From Escherichia virus TH40, in the sequence record MT446411.1: a DNA stretch of 64,000 bases; one strand, written 5' to 3'. Below, in pieces: positions 1,415 through 38,805 of the stretch. Numbering within the stretch: the stretch's first letter is position 1; every line of letters starts with the position of its first letter. Position numbers and translations under genes: made by a program. A model generated the notes under the pieces. That model ran no database searches. It was given only the letters and a program-made list of their open reading frames with translations, and had not been told where the DNA came from.

Positions 1415-2235
1415 TTACCCCCTTGGCCACCGGTCGGTTGATTGTACCAGTATTCAATACCAGTACCTACACGCTGGCCATATTGATATGGATATGCTGG
1501 ATTATATCCAGGAGTCCACGGTTGACCAGGCTGCCAGCCTTGCTGCATTTGTTGTTGAAGGCGTCGAGTTTCACGAAACAGCTCTTCCAGTTTACGGAGT
1601 TCATCTGGAGTGAATTCTGGTTTGACCGGTTCATCTTTGTGTTTCAGTTTAAGCTGTCCAGCAACATCGTCCCAATTAAAAACTTTGGAAGCTGTTTTAG
1701 GAATAGCATCACGTTCGCCGCGGGCCATCCAATAAACCGGAACCTCGAGAATTTCACTCGCATGGTCGCAATGGTGGGCAAGGTCATCAATATAACAAAT
1801 GACATTATATTTGGTCTTCGCTTTCTGAAACAAATCTTCTTTAGAAGCTGTATGACCACACATCATCACTTCTTTAAATGCCCCAGGGAACAAAGCATTC
1901 AGGTTGAATTGACGATTCAGGCGTGCGTCAATGGAATCACCCAGGGCTGTAACAGCCACAAAATCATATTGCTCTTTGAGGTTATTAATAACCCTTAATG
2001 CATCCGCATAAGGAGACAAATAGCGAATAAAGTCTGAACAGTTATATTTTTCAATTAACTGCGCGCCTAACTCTTCATCACAATTGAAAAGTTTACCAGG
2101 GGTCACAAATTTTTCATCCTGAATCATCTTAAGGATATGTTCCAGGGGTAAATTATATTTTTGAGCGAAATAAGGTAAGCCAGACTGCCATGACAAACAT
2201 ACGCCATCAATATCTGTTAAAATAACGGGTTTCAT
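1411..2235 (-). CDS. HAD-superfamily hydrolase-like protein with Q/P/G/Y-rich C-terminal tail
   Basis: N-terminal ILTDIDGV (DxDGx HAD motif I); 4-nt stop/start overlaps with both neighbours. Confidence 0.6.
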   Translation of the reverse strand: MKPVILTDIDGVCLSWQSGLPYFAQKYNLPLEHILKMIQDEKFVTPGKLFNCDEELGAQLIEKYNCSDFIRYLSPYADALRVINNLKEQYDFVAVTALGDSIDARLNRQFNLNALFPGAFKEVMMCGHTASKEDLFQKAKTKYNVICYIDDLAHHCDHASEILEVPVYWMARGERDAIPKTASKVFNWDDVAGQLKLKHKDEPVKPEFTPDELRKLEELFRETRRLQQQMQQGWQPGQPWTPGYNPAYPYQYGQRVGTGIEYWYNQPTGGQGGN

Positions 2236-2699
2236 AATGCATCTCTCAATTGGTTAAGTATGTCAATAAATTCTTGTTCAGTCAATATTGTATCATGAAC
2301 AGTAAGGTGGCTCGCCATCGAATGCTTTAAAACTTTGCCTTTTGTGGATTGTAACGCATTGCGGAATCCTTGGTTCTGGAGCGCTGCTTCAAAATATGCA
2401 TTTGTATACAGCTCTTTCCATGCTGCAGAGTATCTTGAAAAGGGAATTCCAAGCCAGAAAAGCGTCCCACGGTCCGCAGCTCTTGCATAAGCTCTTCCAC
2501 TTTGCTGGGCGGCCAATCCGGACATCCCAAATATACGTTTTTGTTGTTCAACATTTCTCACCTTGCATCCTTGTAGGAAGCCTTCAAGACCTCCAAACTG
2601 GATACCCTCCATAACAAAAGGCCATTTAGCAAAGTTACTTAATGCACATGATGGCCATGGGAAATTGCTTCTGATTTCTAACTCAGACATCTTTGACAC
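2232..2699 (-). CDS. hypothetical protein
   Basis: 155-aa ORF in co-directional array, ATGA overlap with downstream gene. Confidence 0.5.
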   Translation of the reverse strand: MSKMSELEIRSNFPWPSCALSNFAKWPFVMEGIQFGGLEGFLQGCKVRNVEQQKRIFGMSGLAAQQSGRAYARAADRGTLFWLGIPFSRYSAAWKELYTNAYFEAALQNQGFRNALQSTKGKVLKHSMASHLTVHDTILTEQEFIDILNQLRDAL

Positions 2700-22213: not shown

Positions 22214-22242
22214 GAAAATAAAAAAGGGACCCGAAGGTCCCC
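22214..22242 (-). terminator. rho-independent terminator after gene 32
   Basis: Minus strand GGGACCTTCGGGTCCC followed by TTTTTTATTTT. Confidence 0.6.
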
Positions 22243-22247
22243 TTATA

Positions 22248-23159
22248 TTAAAGGCCAGCCAGAAGGTCGTCAAGACCATCATCAGAAGGCTCTGGAGTGC
22301 TTGGAGCAGTCGCAGTGCGTTCAGACTTAGCAGGTTTGCTGGAAGTGAAATCTTCCATATCTTTATCAAAATCGTCCAGGTCAGCGCCCAGTTTATCAGC
22401 TTGTGCAGCAGCTTTAGAAGCAGCACCGCCGAGAGCAGCCGTACCCATTACTTTAGAGAATTTCTTCTGATTCTCTTCAAGGGATTTAAACACCAGCAAT
22501 TCATTCAGGTCAGACATTTCGTCCCAAAGTTTTTTCTGGAACGCTTCATCATTGATGCCAACGATTTCAGACTGGTTCATGAATTTGGAATCATCGTAGT
22601 TTTTATAACCGGAAACCAGTTTAGATTTCAGTACAAAGTTTGCACCTTCAAAAGGACAAGTTACATCAATAGCTGTTTCGCCCATGTCAACATCGACTTC
22701 AACCATCTGGTTAATTTTGTCCATGATTTTCTTGCCGAAGCGATATTTGAATACTTGGCCTTCGTTAGACGGAACAGCAGGGTCTTTAATGACCAGGATG
22801 TTAGCCCAGTAAGAAGTATTACGCTTCAGTTTACGATATTCGGATTCGTTTGTGTTGTACAGGTCATTCTTATTCATGTACGCACACACAGGGCAGTTTT
22901 CATAATCGCCGTGAGTGGAAGTACAGTTTTCAATATACCATTGACCAGCATTTTTAAAGCCGTGGTTAACGAGCTTGATGAACGGAGATGGATTTTCTTC
23001 ATTCTTGGAAGGCAGGAAACGAATAACCGCAGAACCGACGCCATCAGTATCTTTCAGTTTCCATTCTTTTTTATCGTCAGAAGAGAAACCAGAACCACCT
23101 TTCAGAGCGTTAAGGGAAGCAGCCAGGTCAGCAGGGTTTTTACGTTTAAACATAGACAT
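22248..23159 (-). CDS. 32: single-stranded DNA-binding protein
   Basis: 303 aa; [25 protein letters not shown]...[11 protein letters not shown] matches T4 gp32 as recalled. Confidence 0.95.
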
Positions 23160-23219
23160 ATGATTTTCCTTAGATTATTTGATTTTTAGCAGTTGTTTTG
23201 ATTACGTATTAATTATACT

Positions 23220-23888
23220 TCAAAGTGCTTGAAGCGTTATTTGACAGTTTTTAACGGTCTCGATGAACAATTTACGAGCTTCAAGAGAATCTATATTTAA
23301 GATTTTCTTATAGGCATTTAGTTTGGTTGAATACTTTTCCCAAACCAAGTCGTTAGTCTGTTCATCATGTTTATTTATAATATCTAAAAATGAATCAAGC
23401 AAACAAAACGTTTCAAATGAGATAACATTCGATTGGAGAAGTTTGAAAATATAACTTGTGTTTACTTTAGTATTATACTCGAAAATCTCTTGAAGCGATT
23501 TGACTTCGACTTTCTTACTGAAGTAATAGATATTCTTTATATCATCTTCGTATACTTGTTTAATTCTTTTAAGTCTGCCAATGTATTCTCGATAAAATAT
23601 CAGAGCATCGGCATCGCTTATATCACCTATCCATGCATCCTGGTTCGCGACCAGGTTTGACATGAATATTAACGTTAATTCTTTGAGAGTGTACTTATCA
23701 CTAAGCTTTTCGAAAAAATACTTATCGCGACGTTTTTGATAAGCACTATCGGAGATTCGCATGGTCCAGTTATATTTGATAATATCATAACGACCCGAAA
23801 AATGCTGTTTGATGGATAAGTACAGTTGATATACTGATTTACCATTTATGTATCGGTTGTTATTTGGAGGCATGCGAATCGTAATCAT
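23220..23888 (-). CDS. 59: helicase loader gp59
   Basis: 222 aa; co-linear with T4 gp59 as recalled. Confidence 0.9.
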   Translation of the reverse strand: MITIRMPPNNNRYINGKSVYQLYLSIKQHFSGRYDIIKYNWTMRISDSAYQKRRDKYFFEKLSDKYTLKELTLIFMSNLVANQDAWIGDISDADALIFYREYIGRLKRIKQVYEDDIKNIYYFSKKVEVKSLQEIFEYNTKVNTSYIFKLLQSNVISFETFCLLDSFLDIINKHDEQTNDLVWEKYSTKLNAYKKILNIDSLEARKLFIETVKNCQITLQAL

Positions 23889-24178
23889 AACAAAAAGTCC
23901 AGCGTATTAGTTTTCTGTGTACGAGACATACTCGGACGAAGCAGGTTATCATCATATGCTTCATTCATAATCTTATCAATGATTCCTGCGGGAATGTATC
24001 GCGCAAAATTACCTTCAGGAATTCCACGTTCTTCCAACCAGGCAGTCGCAGCTTCCAGATAAGACATTTCAGTTGACTCAACCATGGCTTCAATATCAAG
24101 CCCGTTTTGCTGCTTACTAATCGCCCCGGAAGGCGATTCAGTTTTCTGTGTATCGAAATTAACTAAAGAGGACATCAT
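23885..24178 (-). CDS. 33: late transcription co-activator gp33 (start uncertain)
   Basis: C-terminal ...MSYLEAATAWLEE...NLLRPS...TLDFLL matches T4 gp33 as recalled; ATG 24176-24178 has GGAG SD; track ORF start at 24271 would overlap dsbA by 110 nt. Confidence 0.65.
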   Translation of the reverse strand: MMSSLVNFDTQKTESPSGAISKQQNGLDIEAMVESTEMSYLEAATAWLEERGIPEGNFARYIPAGIIDKIMNEAYDDNLLRPSMSRTQKTNTLDFLL

Positions 24179-24428
24179 AGAGCTCCACAGCTTCGGTTTT
24201 TTCATCTTCAAAACGTTCACGAGTGCCTTTATGATACAGGCCGAGCTGTGTATTGAACATCTTACCGTCAACGCCTAATTCAGTTTTTGCCTTATCTTTA
24301 AGGTCTTTAATTTCGTCTGCATATGCTTCCATTTTTAATTTGGTATCGGAAGCAGCTTTAATCAGCTTGGCTAGTTCAGCGCCATGAGTATCAGGACAAA
24401 ATTCAACTTTCACTTTTTTCTCTTTCAT
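24159..24428 (-). CDS. dsbA: dsDNA-binding protein DsbA
   Basis: 89 aa, position between rnh and gene 33. Confidence 0.7.
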   Translation of the reverse strand: MKEKKVKVEFCPDTHGAELAKLIKAASDTKLKMEAYADEIKDLKDKAKTELGVDGKMFNTQLGLYHKGTRERFEDEKTEAVELYDVLFS

Positions 24429-24436
24429 AATATACC

Positions 24437-25381
24437 TTAATAAAATTCAGCAATATTTGCAGTTAGTTTAGACAGACCAGACTTAACAAAGTAAGGATAA
24501 ACTTTACTTTTGGCTGGGATAACGTAATTATTATATCGTTCTAAGATTGAAGCGGATATTTCCGTTGGGATAAAGTCCATATCAATCAACAATTGGTTTT
24601 CACAGAATCTATTATATTGCTCTTTTGTTAAAAGCGTTTTCAAAACGTCATGGTCGTAATAGTTGAGTGCAATTTGTTCAAGCTCAGCTGCGCGGGTTGG
24701 TGGAGTACGTTCACCTTCTTCATGAGTGTAATAAAAATCACCACGAACCTTGATGCTCGACACGTTATCTTTTTTGTCGCCTTTAACAACCTTTGTCACG
24801 CAATCCATAAGGGCATCGCCTGATTTAGTTTTGACATATTTTTTCTGCATCGGGGACCATTGTTTCACCCCAGGGAATTTATGCAACTGCGTAAAGTCAC
24901 CATCCGAAGAAACAATCATAACCGGATGTCCGAGACCAGTGAGCAACTTCGTTAATACTGCAATATGGTCATCAGCCTCAACTTTATCCATATTCATCAC
25001 GATGTAAGGCATATGTTTTTCCATTTCATCGATAATGATATGCATGGCAGCATGTAGACCTTCCCAATCGAATTGAGACTCTTCACGAGCTTTCGCACGG
25101 TTTTTCTTATAATAATAAGATTTAGTCCGGCGCCAATAACCATTCTTCGAATTATCAACACAAATAATCGGAATCGTATAACCGAGCTTCTTGAACTGCA
25201 CAATATTTTTTCGGATGGAGTTCAGAACCAAGTGTCTGGTCATTGCAGTTGTTACTTTCGGAAAGCCTGCGTCTTTGCCGAATTCCTGAAAGGCTGCAGC
25301 CATGATGAGCTGACTAAAATCGAGTAACTGAAAACCTTCTTTTTGACGGTCTTCTTCAGGGAGTAAAAAATCTAAATTCAT
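24437..25381 (-). CDS. rnh: RNase H (FEN-1 family 5'-3' exonuclease)
   Basis: 314 aa; acidic clusters of a FEN-type nuclease; position next to gene 34. Confidence 0.85.
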   Translation of the reverse strand: MNLDFLLPEEDRQKEGFQLLDFSQLIMAAAFQEFGKDAGFPKVTTAMTRHLVLNSIRKNIVQFKKLGYTIPIICVDNSKNGYWRRTKSYYYKKNRAKAREESQFDWEGLHAAMHIIIDEMEKHMPYIVMNMDKVEADDHIAVLTKLLTGLGHPVMIVSSDGDFTQLHKFPGVKQWSPMQKKYVKTKSGDALMDCVTKVVKGDKKDNVSSIKVRGDFYYTHEEGERTPPTRAAELEQIALNYYDHDVLKTLLTKEQYNRFCENQLLIDMDFIPTEISASILERYNNYVIPAKSKVYPYFVKSGLSKLTANIAEFY

Positions 25382-25477: not shown

Positions 25478-28400
25478 ATGGCCGATATTTTAAAACCAGC
25501 ATTCAGAGCAACATCCGGTCTCGATGCTGCTGGTGAGAAAGTCATTAATGTCGCAAAAGCTGATTACTCAGTTTTATCAGACGGCATTAACGTAGGTTTC
25601 TTTATAGAAGAAAACACAGTTCAACAATATGATGCAACACGCGGATACAAAAAGAACTTTGCAGTTATTAATGATAACCGTATTTGGGTTGCTCAACGTG
25701 ATATTCCGGCACCAGCTGGAGCATTTACCCCTCAGTATTGGTTAGCAACTCGTACTGACCCTAAATGGGAAACTGTTGCATCTCCAACTCGTCAGCTTAG
25801 CTCCGGGGAATTTATCGCAGTCGACTCAGCTGCAAGCTTTACCACATTTACATTGCCTCCGAACCCGACTGATGGTGATACCATCGTTATTAAAGATATC
25901 GGCGGTAATACCGGTTATAATGAAATTAAAATCCAGTCAAGCAACGTGCCTGGCCAAGGTAACCAAAAGATTGTTCGCTTTGGTAATCAGTATTCAGAAG
26001 TTTTAATTACCAAACCATTCTCTTATAACATGCTTATCTTTTCAAACCGCTTATGGCAATTTTGGGAAGCAGGTAACGAAGAACGTGGTATCAGAGTAGA
26101 ACCGTCGACTGGTCGTTTCCATGCACAAGCTGGCGACTTTATTATGCGTCGTTATACAACTGGTGCACCGATTACTTTCATTCTTCCTAAGTATGCAAAC
26201 CAGGGTGATATTGTCAAATCTGTTGATATCGATGGCATGGGGCCAACGTTCCACCTGATGGTTGAAACCTTTGACACCAGTTCCAGTCTTGATAAAGTTG
26301 GTCAGCATCAAATGGAATTCCGCACCACAGGTGATGGTTTCTTCGTTTATGATGCTGCCGAAAAACTCTGGCATGTTTGGGACGGTGATTTTAAAACTCG
26401 TCTTCGTGTTATTCGCGACAGCGTTAAACTTTTACCAAACGAAAGTGTCATTGTATTTGGCGAAGATAACTCAACTCCGGCAACGATTAATATCGATTTA
26501 CCAACGGATGTTTTGCAAGGCGACATTGTTAAAATTGCATTGAACTATCTCCGTAAATCACAGACTGTTAATATAAGAGCTGCTGCTGGTGATAAGATTG
26601 CATCCGACATTAAATTACTGCAATTTCCTAAACGCTCCGAGTATCCACCAGATACAACTTGGGTATTTGTTGATTCATTGACCTTTAACGGTGACATCAG
26701 TTATACTCCGGTTATTGAATTGTCTTATGCAGAAGATAAAGTGTCTGGAACAAGTTATTGGGTTGTTGCTCAAAACGTTCCGACTGTTGAACGAGTTGAC
26801 TCATTAAATGATTCCACGCGCGCACGTCTTGGTGTTATTGCTTTGGCAAACCAGACTCAGGCAAACGTTGACCATGAAAATAACCCAGAGAAAGAACTCG
26901 CAATTACTCCTCAGACTTTGGCTAACCGTGTTGCTAAAGAGAACCAACGAGGCATTGCCAGAATCGCAACGACTGCCCAGGTAAATCAGAACAGTGATTT
27001 TGCATTTGTTGACGATGTAATTATTTCTCCGAAAAAACTCAATGAACGTACGGCAACAGAAACGAGACGTGGGCTCGCAGAACTCGCCACACAGCAAGAA
27101 ACTGATGCAGGTGTAGATGATACCACAATTATAACTCCAAAGAAACTGCAAGCGCGTCAGGGCTCAGAATCGTTGTCCGGTATCGTGACTTACGTTTCAA
27201 CGACTGGTGCAACTCCTGCTGCTTCGCGTGAATTAAATGGTACAAACGTTTATAATAAAAATACGGTTAATCTGGTTGTTTCTCCGAAAGCTCTTGGCCA
27301 GTACAAAGCTACTTACACTCAGCAAGGCGCGGTTATTCTTGCGGTTGAAAGTGAAGTAATCGCTGGTACTTCTCAATCTGGTTGGGCAAACGCAGTCGTT
27401 ACTCCAGAAATGCTGCATCGCAAAACTGCTCTTGATTCCCGTATCGGTTTAATCGAGATTGCTACTCAGGTTGAAACAGATGCAGGAACCGATTATACCA
27501 GAGCTGTGACTCCTAAAACGTTAAATGACCGTAAAGCATCAGAAACGTTAACCGGCATAGCCGAGATTGCTACGCAATCAGAATTTGATACTGGAACTGA
27601 TGATACTCGTATCTCAACTCCATTAAAAATTAAAAATAGATTTAATAATACTGCTCGTACTTCTGTTAATGCATTAAGTGGTTTAGTAGAAACAGGGACG
27701 CTCTGGGACCATTATAGCCTGAATATTCTTGAAGCAAATGAGACTCAGCGTGGCACAGCAAGATTAGCAACTCAGGGTGAAGTCAATACTGGCACTGACG
27801 ATAAAACAATCGTTACTCCGCTTAAATTGATGTCGAAAAAAGCCACTGAAAATGCCGAAGGTATTGTTCGCATCGCGACAAACGCAGAAGCAACTGCCGG
27901 TACATCGAAAGTTCTGGCCATCAGTCCGTCTGCGCTGAAATATATTGCACAAACGGAAACAACCTGGGAAGCATCTGAAACACTGCGTGGATTTGTTCGT
28001 TTATCTTCTGGTGCAGCCACTTCGGCCGCAACTACAACGACTGGTGCAGGATTTACATATGCAAATGGTGCGTATACCCCGGACCCAAGTAAACTGGTTA
28101 GCTACGCAAAATCTGGATATGCAGTTTCGCCTTACGAATTAAACCGCGTATTGCAAAACTTCTTACCGATAAATGCGATGGCTGTTAATGCTGAAAAACT
28201 GGATAACCTCGATTCGACCCAGTTTATTCGTCGTGATATTGCTCAGACTGTTGAAGGTGTATTAACCCTTACTAAGCAGACAAATATCTCTGCTCCGGTT
28301 GTATCGACGAGCACTGCGGTGTTTACTGATGTAACGGCTGGTACTTCGACGTTCGGAACTGTGAATGTTGTTAATGGAACTAACAAGTGGAAAATCACTG

Positions 28401-35397: not shown

Positions 35398-36051
35398 ATG
35401 GAACCAAAAGTAGGAATATCAATACCCGACCTACTTTTTGGACTTCTTGATAGAATTTTTAAAGATAATGCGACCGGGAAAGTTGTTTTTTCCCGGGTAC
35501 TAGTTATTGTTCTATTATTTTTAATGGCGGTAATCTGGTATAAAGGTGATGCACTTTTAGATGCGTACAGGGATGCTTCATATGCCTCATACACTGAAAT
35601 GATAAGGCAAGACCAGGATAACAGATTTAAAATTGCAGCTATCGAGCAAATCCAGATAGTCCACTCGTCAAGTGGAGCAGACTTTACAGCAATATATTCC
35701 TTTAGACCAACTAACCTTAACTACTTTGTGGATATGGTGGGATACGAGGGAATATTGCCTGATACAGTCGACGAAAAAAATTTAGGTGGGTTTCCAATAG
35801 ATAAGACTTCAGCGGAATATTTGGCGGGGGTTAATGGTAATTATTTTGAATCCAGTGTGGAATCTGTATTCTTACCAACAAAGAAAAAAAGCAGCTTCAC
35901 ATATATGTTCAGCTGCCCATTCTTTAATTTGGAAAACGTTTATGCAGGCACAGTCTCACTGTACTGGTATAAGCAAAAACCCGACCTTGGTTTTGATAGG
36001 CTTTCTTCTATGTGTGGACAAGCAGGTCGTACGCTCGGGCGTACACGTTAG
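35398..36051 (+). CDS. t: holin
   Basis: 217 aa; DLLFGLLDRIFKDNATGKV then one TM helix; YSFRPTNLNYFVD and FNLENVYAGT match T4 holin T as recalled. Confidence 0.9.
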   Translation: MEPKVGISIPDLLFGLLDRIFKDNATGKVVFSRVLVIVLLFLMAVIWYKGDALLDAYRDASYASYTEMIRQDQDNRFKIAAIEQIQIVHSSSGADFTAIYSFRPTNLNYFVDMVGYEGILPDTVDEKNLGGFPIDKTSAEYLAGVNGNYFESSVESVFLPTKKKSSFTYMFSCPFFNLENVYAGTVSLYWYKQKPDLGFDRLSSMCGQAGRTLGRTR

Positions 36052-36323
36052 AATCCGGAGGTATACATCATAAGATAACGGTGTATATCTTCGAATCCTT
36101 CGTTAAATTGTTCAATGATTTGTTCAATTTCATCTTCAGATAAACTTTTAAACAATTTGTTAAACGATACATTGTTTAACTCATTCCCATTCTCATTTCT
36201 CAATCCCAACTCATTCAAAAACGCGATAAACACATCGCGCTTCATCGTAATATCTTCCCGGTCGGTTTTAATCAAAATTGAAGTTATAGTAACAATTTCA
36301 GAAACGATTTCAAATTTAGTCAT
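36048..36323 (-). CDS. asiA: anti-sigma70 factor AsiA
   Basis: 91 aa; ILIKTDREDI...FIAFLNELG...EGFEDIHRYLMMYT resembles T4 AsiA as recalled. Confidence 0.85.
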   Translation of the reverse strand: MTKFEIVSEIVTITSILIKTDREDITMKRDVFIAFLNELGLRNENGNELNNVSFNKLFKSLSEDEIEQIIEQFNEGFEDIHRYLMMYTSGF

Positions 36324-38196: not shown

Positions 38197-38805
38197 TCAC
38201 TTTAAGATGTTAATAACATGTTGAATGTTTTCAGTTGACATATGATTGTCAATGTAGGTATTCAATCCACCTACTTTAACGCTAAATCCCACGTCTGTAA
38301 ACTGTTTTACTATCTTTTGTTCAGTATTATACGCATGCACGCGAATCTGACCATCACGACGAACATCAATCTGTTTTAATGTCTTGACACGCTTGAACTT
38401 CACAATCAGATTGCTGCGGTCTTCTGAAATGCTCTTAAAGTCAATACCAATAGACAACAATTGCTCTTTGATATATTCTGCAGTCGCTTCCATTTCATCA
38501 GTCACACCGCGTTTTGTTCTTGTCTTCTTCACTTCCAGAAGGTCAGGATTATTTTCATTTGCCCAAAGTTCAGCTGCATCCAGAATAAGGTCAACACCTT
38601 TTTCTGTAACCATCAAACCATCACCAGAAGCTTCAACATAGTTGTTATTCAACAATGTCTGCACGCTATCAATTGACGTGTTCTGCTGGCCTAAAACAAC
38701 CTCAGGACGCACGAAGTTGTTTTTGTATACAAACACCAGAGCATTGACATCAGTCTCATGTAGAGCGTTCTGGGAGCATTTAACGATATAATTTAGCTTG
38801 TTCAT
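38197..38805 (-). CDS. motA: middle-transcription activator MotA
   Basis: 202 aa; position next to gene 52 and overall pattern resemble T4 MotA as recalled. Confidence 0.75.
   Translation of the reverse strand: MNKLNYIVKCSQNALHETDVNALVFVYKNNFVRPEVVLGQQNTSIDSVQTLLNNNYVEASGDGLMVTEKGVDLILDAAELWANENNPDLLEVKKTRTKRGVTDEMEATAEYIKEQLLSIGIDFKSISEDRSNLIVKFKRVKTLKQIDVRRDGQIRVHAYNTEQKIVKQFTDVGFSVKVGGLNTYIDNHMSTENIQHVINILK

Follow-up and report, generated by a model that had tools for sequence, protein, structure and literature searches.

A probable middle promoter of the MotA/AsiA type immediately upstream of gene 32 in Gaprivervirus phages

Does gene 32 possess a middle promoter of its own in a T4-like phage that lacks segG between genes 59 and 32? 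An earlier note on this DNA proposed a possible MotA-dependent middle promoter upstream of gene 32. The proposal was followed up by computational analysis of the 64,000-nucleotide stretch of Escherichia virus TH40 DNA (MT446411.1), referred to below as the window. The window comes from a T4-like phage of the genus Gaprivervirus. Its segment 22900..23700 shows 99.5% identity to Yersinia phage vB_YenM_P8 and ~95% to VR7, the shorter segment 23100..23400 is ~96% identical to SP18, and the gene 32 DNA is 95-99% identical to annotated gene 32 of relatives. The order of genes on the minus strand is rnh, dsbA, 33, 59, 32 and frd.2, and gene 34 runs on the plus strand from 25478. The window MotA is a full-length match to T4 MotA (PDB 6k4y, chain 6k4y_M; E = 1.3e-27) with 33% identity, and the window AsiA is 52% identical to T4 AsiA. 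The features considered are collected in Table 1.

Table 1. Positions in the window of the candidate element, neighboring genes and signals, and sites related to T4 middle promoters.
Feature	Position	Strand	Remarks
MotA-box-like CGCTTCA (7 nt)	23230..23236	minus	from sequence; about -31..-25 relative to the predicted start
Spacer, 12 nt	23218..23229	minus	from sequence
Sigma-70 -10 hexamer TATAAT	23212..23217	minus	perfect; from sequence
Predicted transcription start, G	23205	minus	7th base past the -10; inferred from the spacing of mapped T4 starts
Inverted repeat GCTTCAA/TTGAAGT (7-bp hairpin)	23217..23235	minus	overlaps box, spacer and first base of the -10
Predicted gene 32 5′ leader	23160..23204	minus	A-rich, unstructured, MFE 0 kcal/mol
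AACUG pentamer	23194..23190	minus	in predicted leader
Shine-Dalgarno AAGGA	23171..23167	minus	in predicted leader
Gene 32 (single-stranded DNA-binding protein)	22248..23159	minus	Pfam gp32, E = 1.4e-50
Intrinsic terminator after gene 32	22223..22244	minus	9-bp stem with 5 G-C pairs, then T run
Gene 59	23220..23888	minus	
dsbA	24159..24428	minus	
rnh	24437..25381	minus	
motA	38197..38805	minus	Pfam MotA_activ and MotCF, both above cut-offs
asiA	36048..36323	minus	Pfam AsiA, E = 1.7e-20
Canonical late TATAAATA upstream of gene 32, in gene 59	23379..23372	minus	overlaps PsegG counterpart
PsegG counterpart, TGCTTGA-12-TATTAT, inside gene 59	23401..23377	minus	near-identical sequence
Further middle-type site in gene 59, CGCTTCA-13-TATAAT	23497..23472	minus	
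PdsbA counterpart, CGCTTCA (T4: TGCTTCA)	24554..24530	minus	predicted start 95 nt before dsbA ATG
P34i counterpart, TGCTTCA-13-TATAAT, antisense within gene 34	27736..27711	minus	by position
Ptd counterpart, in frd before td	19625	minus	by position
PnrdA counterpart, before nrdA	18136	minus	by position
P31 counterpart, before gene 31	5686	minus	by position
PrIIB counterpart, before rIIB	46400	minus	by position
PrIIA counterpart, before rIIA	48347	minus	by position
P39 counterpart, before gene 39	50870	minus	by position
P56 counterpart, before gene 56	61093	minus	by position

The minus strand of the region reads aaataa-CGCTTCA-agcactttgaag-TATAAT-taatacG. In T4 the middle promoter consensus is (a/t)(a/t)(a/t)TGCTTtA, 12 +/- 1 bp, TAtaaT (PMC2988021). 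Directly 5′ of the candidate box stands an A/T-rich triplet, TAA, and the sequence TAA-CGCTTCA (23239..23230) agrees with the consensus (a/t)(a/t)(a/t)TGCTTtA at 9 of 10 positions, the sole deviation being C for T. The spacing of 12 nt to TATAAT that the earlier note had given holds for the canonical 7-nt box but not for the 8-mer it had quoted, CGCTTCAA, which is followed by 11 nt; its interval, 23212..23237, covers the element with one base in excess. The stop codon of gene 59, TGA (23222..23220), falls inside the spacer. The same 7-base spacing from the -10 to the start as was used in the prediction is found at the mapped T4 P32, PsegG, PdsbA and PdsbA(2) starts, and the gene 32 ATG (23159) is located 46 nt downstream of the predicted start. 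As to its position, the candidate occupies the 3′ end of the preceding gene, on the strand of the early and middle genes, upstream of a middle gene.

The pattern [CT]GCTT[CT]A-N11-13-TATAAT was found nine times on the minus strand of the window and never on the plus strand, with 0.02 matches expected (mean of 300 dinucleotide shuffles). For the C-form alone the corresponding counts were six and none, and the number expected from dinucleotide shuffles was 0.00. An unbiased scan, in which no box was presupposed, recorded the distance of GCTT upstream of TAnAAT on both strands. A sharp peak of GCTT lay 17-19 nt upstream and was confined to the minus strand (20 of 137 sites), with 6, 8 and 6 matches at 17, 18 and 19 nt, 0-2 at other distances and 1-2 on the plus strand. 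A motif class with a YGCTT core is real in this phage, and the candidate is very probably one of about 20 middle-promoter-type sites in the window.

The base preceding GCTT at the 20 minus-strand sites was C in ten cases, T in nine and A in one. The earlier note had called CGCTT an imperfect match; this judgment does not hold for the window phage, where C and T are about equally common as the first base of the box. Variation between C and T at this base was observed on the minus strand at 24554, 23497, 23236, 18136, 8334, 6917, 46400, 48347 and other sites. The commonest states among 14 class members are C at box base 6 (10/14), A at the next base (11/14) and a spacer of 12 nt (8/14); the candidate shows the prevailing state in all three respects and also the A/T-rich upstream triplet. 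Over the homologous 45 kb of T4, TGCTT is the box of P52, P34i, PdsbA(2), PdsbA, PsegG, P32, PnrdB, PI-TevIII and P31, and AGCTT that of P30. T4 MotA is known to read the minor groove at box base 1, which is position -32 in 13-bp-spacer numbering (PMC2988021). The specificity of the window MotA at this base may be shifted or relaxed in comparison with T4, and it is from genomics that we infer recognition of the C-form box by so divergent a MotA.

Class members were also sought at the positions of mapped T4 middle promoters. For this purpose the mapped starts given in Table 1 of PMC2988021 were compared against the T4 sequence; the T4 record AF158101 contains no promoter annotation. The counterparts are listed in Table 1 of this report. 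At PdsbA the mapped T4 start has the same distance to the dsbA ATG, 95 nt, as the start predicted in the window, and the PsegG sequences are TGCTTGAttcgtttttaaaTATAAT in T4 and TGCTTGAttcatttttagaTATTAT in the window. In T4, P34i primes the replication origin oriG (ori34), and the site at 27736..27711 is likely to be the oriG homologue. In the arrangement without segG the sites at 23497, 23401 and 23379 would all feed gene 32, with leaders of ~306, 211 and ~210 nt, respectively.

To assess conservation of the element, the 100 nt preceding gene 32 were aligned for eight Gapriverviruses (the window phage, VR20, VR25, VR26, SP18, UPEC07, VR7 and TH15). CGCTT, the A two bases further on and TATAAT are invariant in all eight, and the leader is nearly so. 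The spacer is 12 nt long in every genome while its sequence varies. The box forms the 5′ limit of conservation; further upstream the sequences of three groups are unrelated. In the window phage, VR20, VR25 and VR26 the box lies within a 5-codon extension of gene 59 (codons aCG CTT CAA), so that gp59 ends with ...NCQITLQAL*, and in other genera it ends with ...CK[FY]*. SP18 and UPEC07 have segG between genes 59 and 32 (L003 1663..2301), and this ORF reads across the box in a different frame (GCT TCA), its last codons being TAT AAT TAA. In VR7 and TH15 the place is taken by a different endonuclease gene, split in two frames (L002 ORFs 1962..2510 and 2473..2634), the last codons of which are TGC GCT TTA AAT AAA AAG TAG, with TAG just before TATAAT. 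In this non-homologous gene 7-8 of the 12 spacer positions differ, and still CGCTTTA stands exactly 12 nt from TATAAT. We estimate the chance of finding YGCTTYA at 11-13 nt in unrelated sequence as ~1e-3. Coding constraint was considered as the cause of box conservation and was rejected, because the genes and the reading frames differ.

The 59-32 junction is thereby seen to be polymorphic within the genus, with no endonuclease and a gp59 longer by five amino acids, with segG, or with a split endonuclease. The C-terminal piece of the split endonuclease of VR7 and TH15 is a Zn-finger. A scan of IMG/VR for further relatives returned only VR20, VR25 and VR26, and a metagenome scan gave one unrelated chance match and one copy that equals the window across the ~160 nt compared; neither scan added diversity. 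The GenBank records of Gapriverviruses that were inspected carry no annotated promoter features, and a search of the literature turned up neither promoter predictions for VR7 or SP18 nor transcript mapping in any Gaprivervirus.

Could the conserved sequence act at the level of RNA? According to such an explanation it would be an element of gene 32 transcripts initiated upstream, namely a stem-loop with an RNase E site or a 5′ stabilizer, and its promoter look would be incidental. RNase E processes all gene 32 mRNAs of T4 at -71, and the processing was reported to be conserved in five T4-related phages (PMC3014915). The site envisaged here would correspond to that cleavage in T4, from which the stable gene 32 mRNA results. 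The inverted repeat could form a GCUUCAA/UUGAAGU stem at -6 kcal/mol, a value that 10 of 200 shuffles equal; 3′ of the stem stands AAUUA (23214..23210), a sequence similar to an RNase E site; in VR7 a weak stem is possible at this position; and from the -10 onwards the sequence is conserved as leader RNA. The stem itself, however, is shortened in VR25 and VR26 and gives way in VR7 and TH15 to a non-homologous weak stem that has one G-C pair only, whereas the register of the box is exact throughout. In the JS98-like phages and RB69 a box and a -10 are retained but there is no such stem, and the entire leader has no advantage in folding over shuffled sequences (z = +0.37). An incidental origin of the promoter pattern would also require a match at 13 positions, with the right spacing and on the right strand, for which the probability is ~1e-5 within a 100-nt region. 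As the whole explanation an RNA element is therefore improbable. It is compatible with a promoter, and a co-resident function is more likely than a sole one: part of the conservation could be due to RNA, given the inverted repeat in the box and spacer and AAUUA at the -10. RNA of the inverted repeat would exist only in transcripts started further upstream. The hairpin was also considered as an intrinsic terminator of gene 59 and was rejected; it has 2 G-C pairs and no T run and is absent from the terminator scan.

The operator of gene 32 in T4, T2 and RB69 consists of an H-type pseudoknot, which ends ~40 nt before the AUG, and an unstructured A/U-rich tract 3′ of it. No pseudoknot of this type was found in the leader region 23160..23245, although it must be kept in mind that RNAfold cannot predict pseudoknots. 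RNAfold gave a simple hairpin only, preceding an A-rich unstructured tract. By eye, the only second stem is one of 4 bp, AGCA/UGCU, which is unsupported by the VR25/26 substitutions. The pseudoknot sequence pattern is present in PhAPEC2, RB69 and Klebsiella phage EI. A scan of 22900..23600 against Rfam (E <= 10) returned just two chance matches, a snoRNA and a miRNA.

A weak promoter recognized by sigma-70 independently of MotA, early or constitutive, would be driven by the -10 alone; TATAAT is a perfect -10, and some -10-dominated promoters work without a -35. The candidate -10 lacks a TGn extension, however, and the best match to a -35 element that could be read from the sequence is 3/6 (ATAACG at 17 nt); the site does not appear in the output of a generic sigma-70 promoter scan. 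An early promoter of the sigma-70 type was rejected for want of a -35. AsiA, moreover, inhibits -35-dependent promoters (PMC2988021), and a promoter of this kind would leave unexplained why YGCTTYA is conserved exactly at 12 nt. We consider this possibility very unlikely.

Least credible, even when the two are taken together, are a chance match without function, which the A/T-rich genome with its 50 occurrences of TATAAT on the minus strand might favor but which is opposed by the expectation of 0.02 matches per 64 kb and by a box that is invariant across three contexts, and a variant of the gp55-dependent late promoter, for which TATAATTA is one base off the late consensus TATAAATA, but canonical TATAAATA precedes the late genes 34, 36 and t (25439, 30597 and 35372) and occurs also at 23379, and TATAATTA is found 3′ of other middle-type boxes as well (61075, 18118 and 6897). 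A regular T4-type late promoter (gp55/gp33/gp45) would have TATAAATA at -13..-6, and was rejected with TATAATTA as the sequence.

The relation to T4 was addressed by comparison with the T4 gene 32 upstream region, which the earlier note had recommended. The mapped start of T4 P32 is at 148057 (Belin et al. 1987, cited in PMC2988021), and the middle and late promoters of T4 gene 32 are embedded in segG (PMC2988022). T4 P32 has the sequence TGCTTAC-13-(TGt)TATTAT and lies within the mobile segG gene, 204 nt before the gene 32 ATG. It shares with the window site the gene served and the class of promoter. T4 P32, however, lies upstream of a late promoter and of the operator pseudoknot, whereas the window site is at -46 and its leader would have no upstream structure; no alignable sequence homology was detected between the two. 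Because T4 P32 is at -204 inside segG, and differs in position and sequence, the window site is a putative functional analogue and not an orthologue of T4 P32. The statement that gene 32 would have middle-mode expression as is known for T4 can thus be retained in the functional sense but not in that of homology.

The general layout proposed for the site, that of a T4 middle promoter, was borne out by the box, the 12-nt spacing, the perfect -10, the lack of a -35, the enrichment of a strand-specific class and the conservation. With T4 MotA/AsiA middle promoters it has in common the A/T triplet, the GCTT core, the y-A that follows, the 12-bp spacer, the -10 and the missing -35, as well as the early/middle strand, a position tens of nucleotides before a replication gene, and a genome encoding motA and asiA. 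It differs from them in having C at box base 1, which is common in the genus, in the 33% identity of its MotA, and in that its activity is predicted.

The closest positional analogues are found in RB69 and the JS98-like phages, where a box, 12 nt and a -10 follow gene 59 and segG is absent, although these sequences are not alignable with the window site. The JS98-like phage MN04 has TGCTTCA-12-(TGt)TAATAT directly after the gene 59 stop, with a predicted start at about -68 (-46 in the window). RB69 and PhAPEC2 have AGCTTTA-12-(TGt)TAAAAT in the same place. The RB69 box (147073..147067) and -10 (147054..147049) coincide with Pm:147081, a middle promoter predicted by Nolan et al. (2006). In contrast to the window site, that of RB69 has AGCTTTA and an extended -10, lies upstream of a late promoter and the pseudoknot, and has a predicted start at about -86. 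In PM2, CIP9 and CF-SP2 genes 59 and 32 are separated by just 13-25 nt, and this interval contains no such site. The sites of SP18/UPEC07 and VR7/TH15 resemble the promoters of host genes that lie within free-standing homing endonuclease genes (Edgell et al. 2010, PMC2988022); in the window, unlike in these cases, the box is overlapped by the 5-codon extension of gene 59 and not by an endonuclease gene.

Overall, the data make it probable that the element is a gene-32-proximal middle promoter of the MotA/AsiA type in Gapriverviruses; its activity, MotA dependence, start site and timing are deduced from sequence. Sigma appropriation is established for T4 (PMC2988021, PMC6755090). By analogy, early AsiA would bind and remodel region 4 of host sigma-70, so that no -35 is needed; MotA would bridge the remodelled sigma and the CGCTTCA box, centered near -30, and sigma region 2 would bind TATAAT 12 bp downstream of the box. 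Transcription would then proceed from ~23205 through the 46-nt unstructured leader and gene 32 and end at the strong terminator. The expected product is a monocistronic mRNA of ~1 kb, because of the positions of the predicted start and the terminator, and it would be made in the pre-replicative (middle) period. This output would be added to read-through from the two middle-type sites and one late-type site inside gene 59. As gene 32 already has middle-type sites at -211 and -306, the need for the candidate is not obvious.

The site is a new, unannotated one of a well-known promoter type and is unremarkable apart from the details of its placement. It adds to the transcription map of gene 32 in Gapriverviruses and probably has little significance beyond annotation. 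It also offers what appears to be a natural example of a promoter preserved or re-created as different homing endonuclease genes enter the 59-32 junction. For work on the T4 family it may provide two handles, namely a MotA orthologue apparently accepting C or T at box base 1, and a gene 32 leader in which the pseudoknot believed to nucleate autoregulation by gp32 would be missing. A further-reaching proposal, that a middle promoter moved to -46 with an unstructured leader has altered gp32 autoregulation and that MotA accepts YGCTT, is rather doubtful when both parts are taken jointly. If it were true, mRNA from the proximal promoter would contain neither pseudoknot nor hairpin, the hairpin would be present in transcripts started at the upstream promoters, and gp32 autoregulation would either operate without a nucleating pseudoknot or act differently on mRNAs from different promoters.

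Several minor observations concern the signals around gene 32. The gene begins ATG TCT ATG (23159..23151), which gives two in-frame starts, and relatives are annotated with either; the first is favored because the Shine-Dalgarno sequence AAGGA is 7 nt away. Of the two strands at the strong terminator stem (22223..22244), only the minus strand has a T run behind it. In the scan of the plus strand the inner 6 bp are listed as terminator-like, with a tail poorer in T (4 Ts in the first 8 bases). We know of no described function for an AACUG pentamer in gene 32 leaders. AACUG occurs in all the T4-like genera examined, ~20-35 nt before the gene 32 AUG, and the leader sequence around it differs between them. 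The phages were T4, RB69/PhAPEC2, JS98-like MN04, PM2, CIP9, CF-SP2, Klebsiella phage EI, PKO111 and the Gapriverviruses, the eight other genera being Tequatrovirus, Mosigvirus, Dhakavirus, Marfavirus, Jiaodavirus, Gelderlandvirus, Mosugukvirus and Kanagawavirus.
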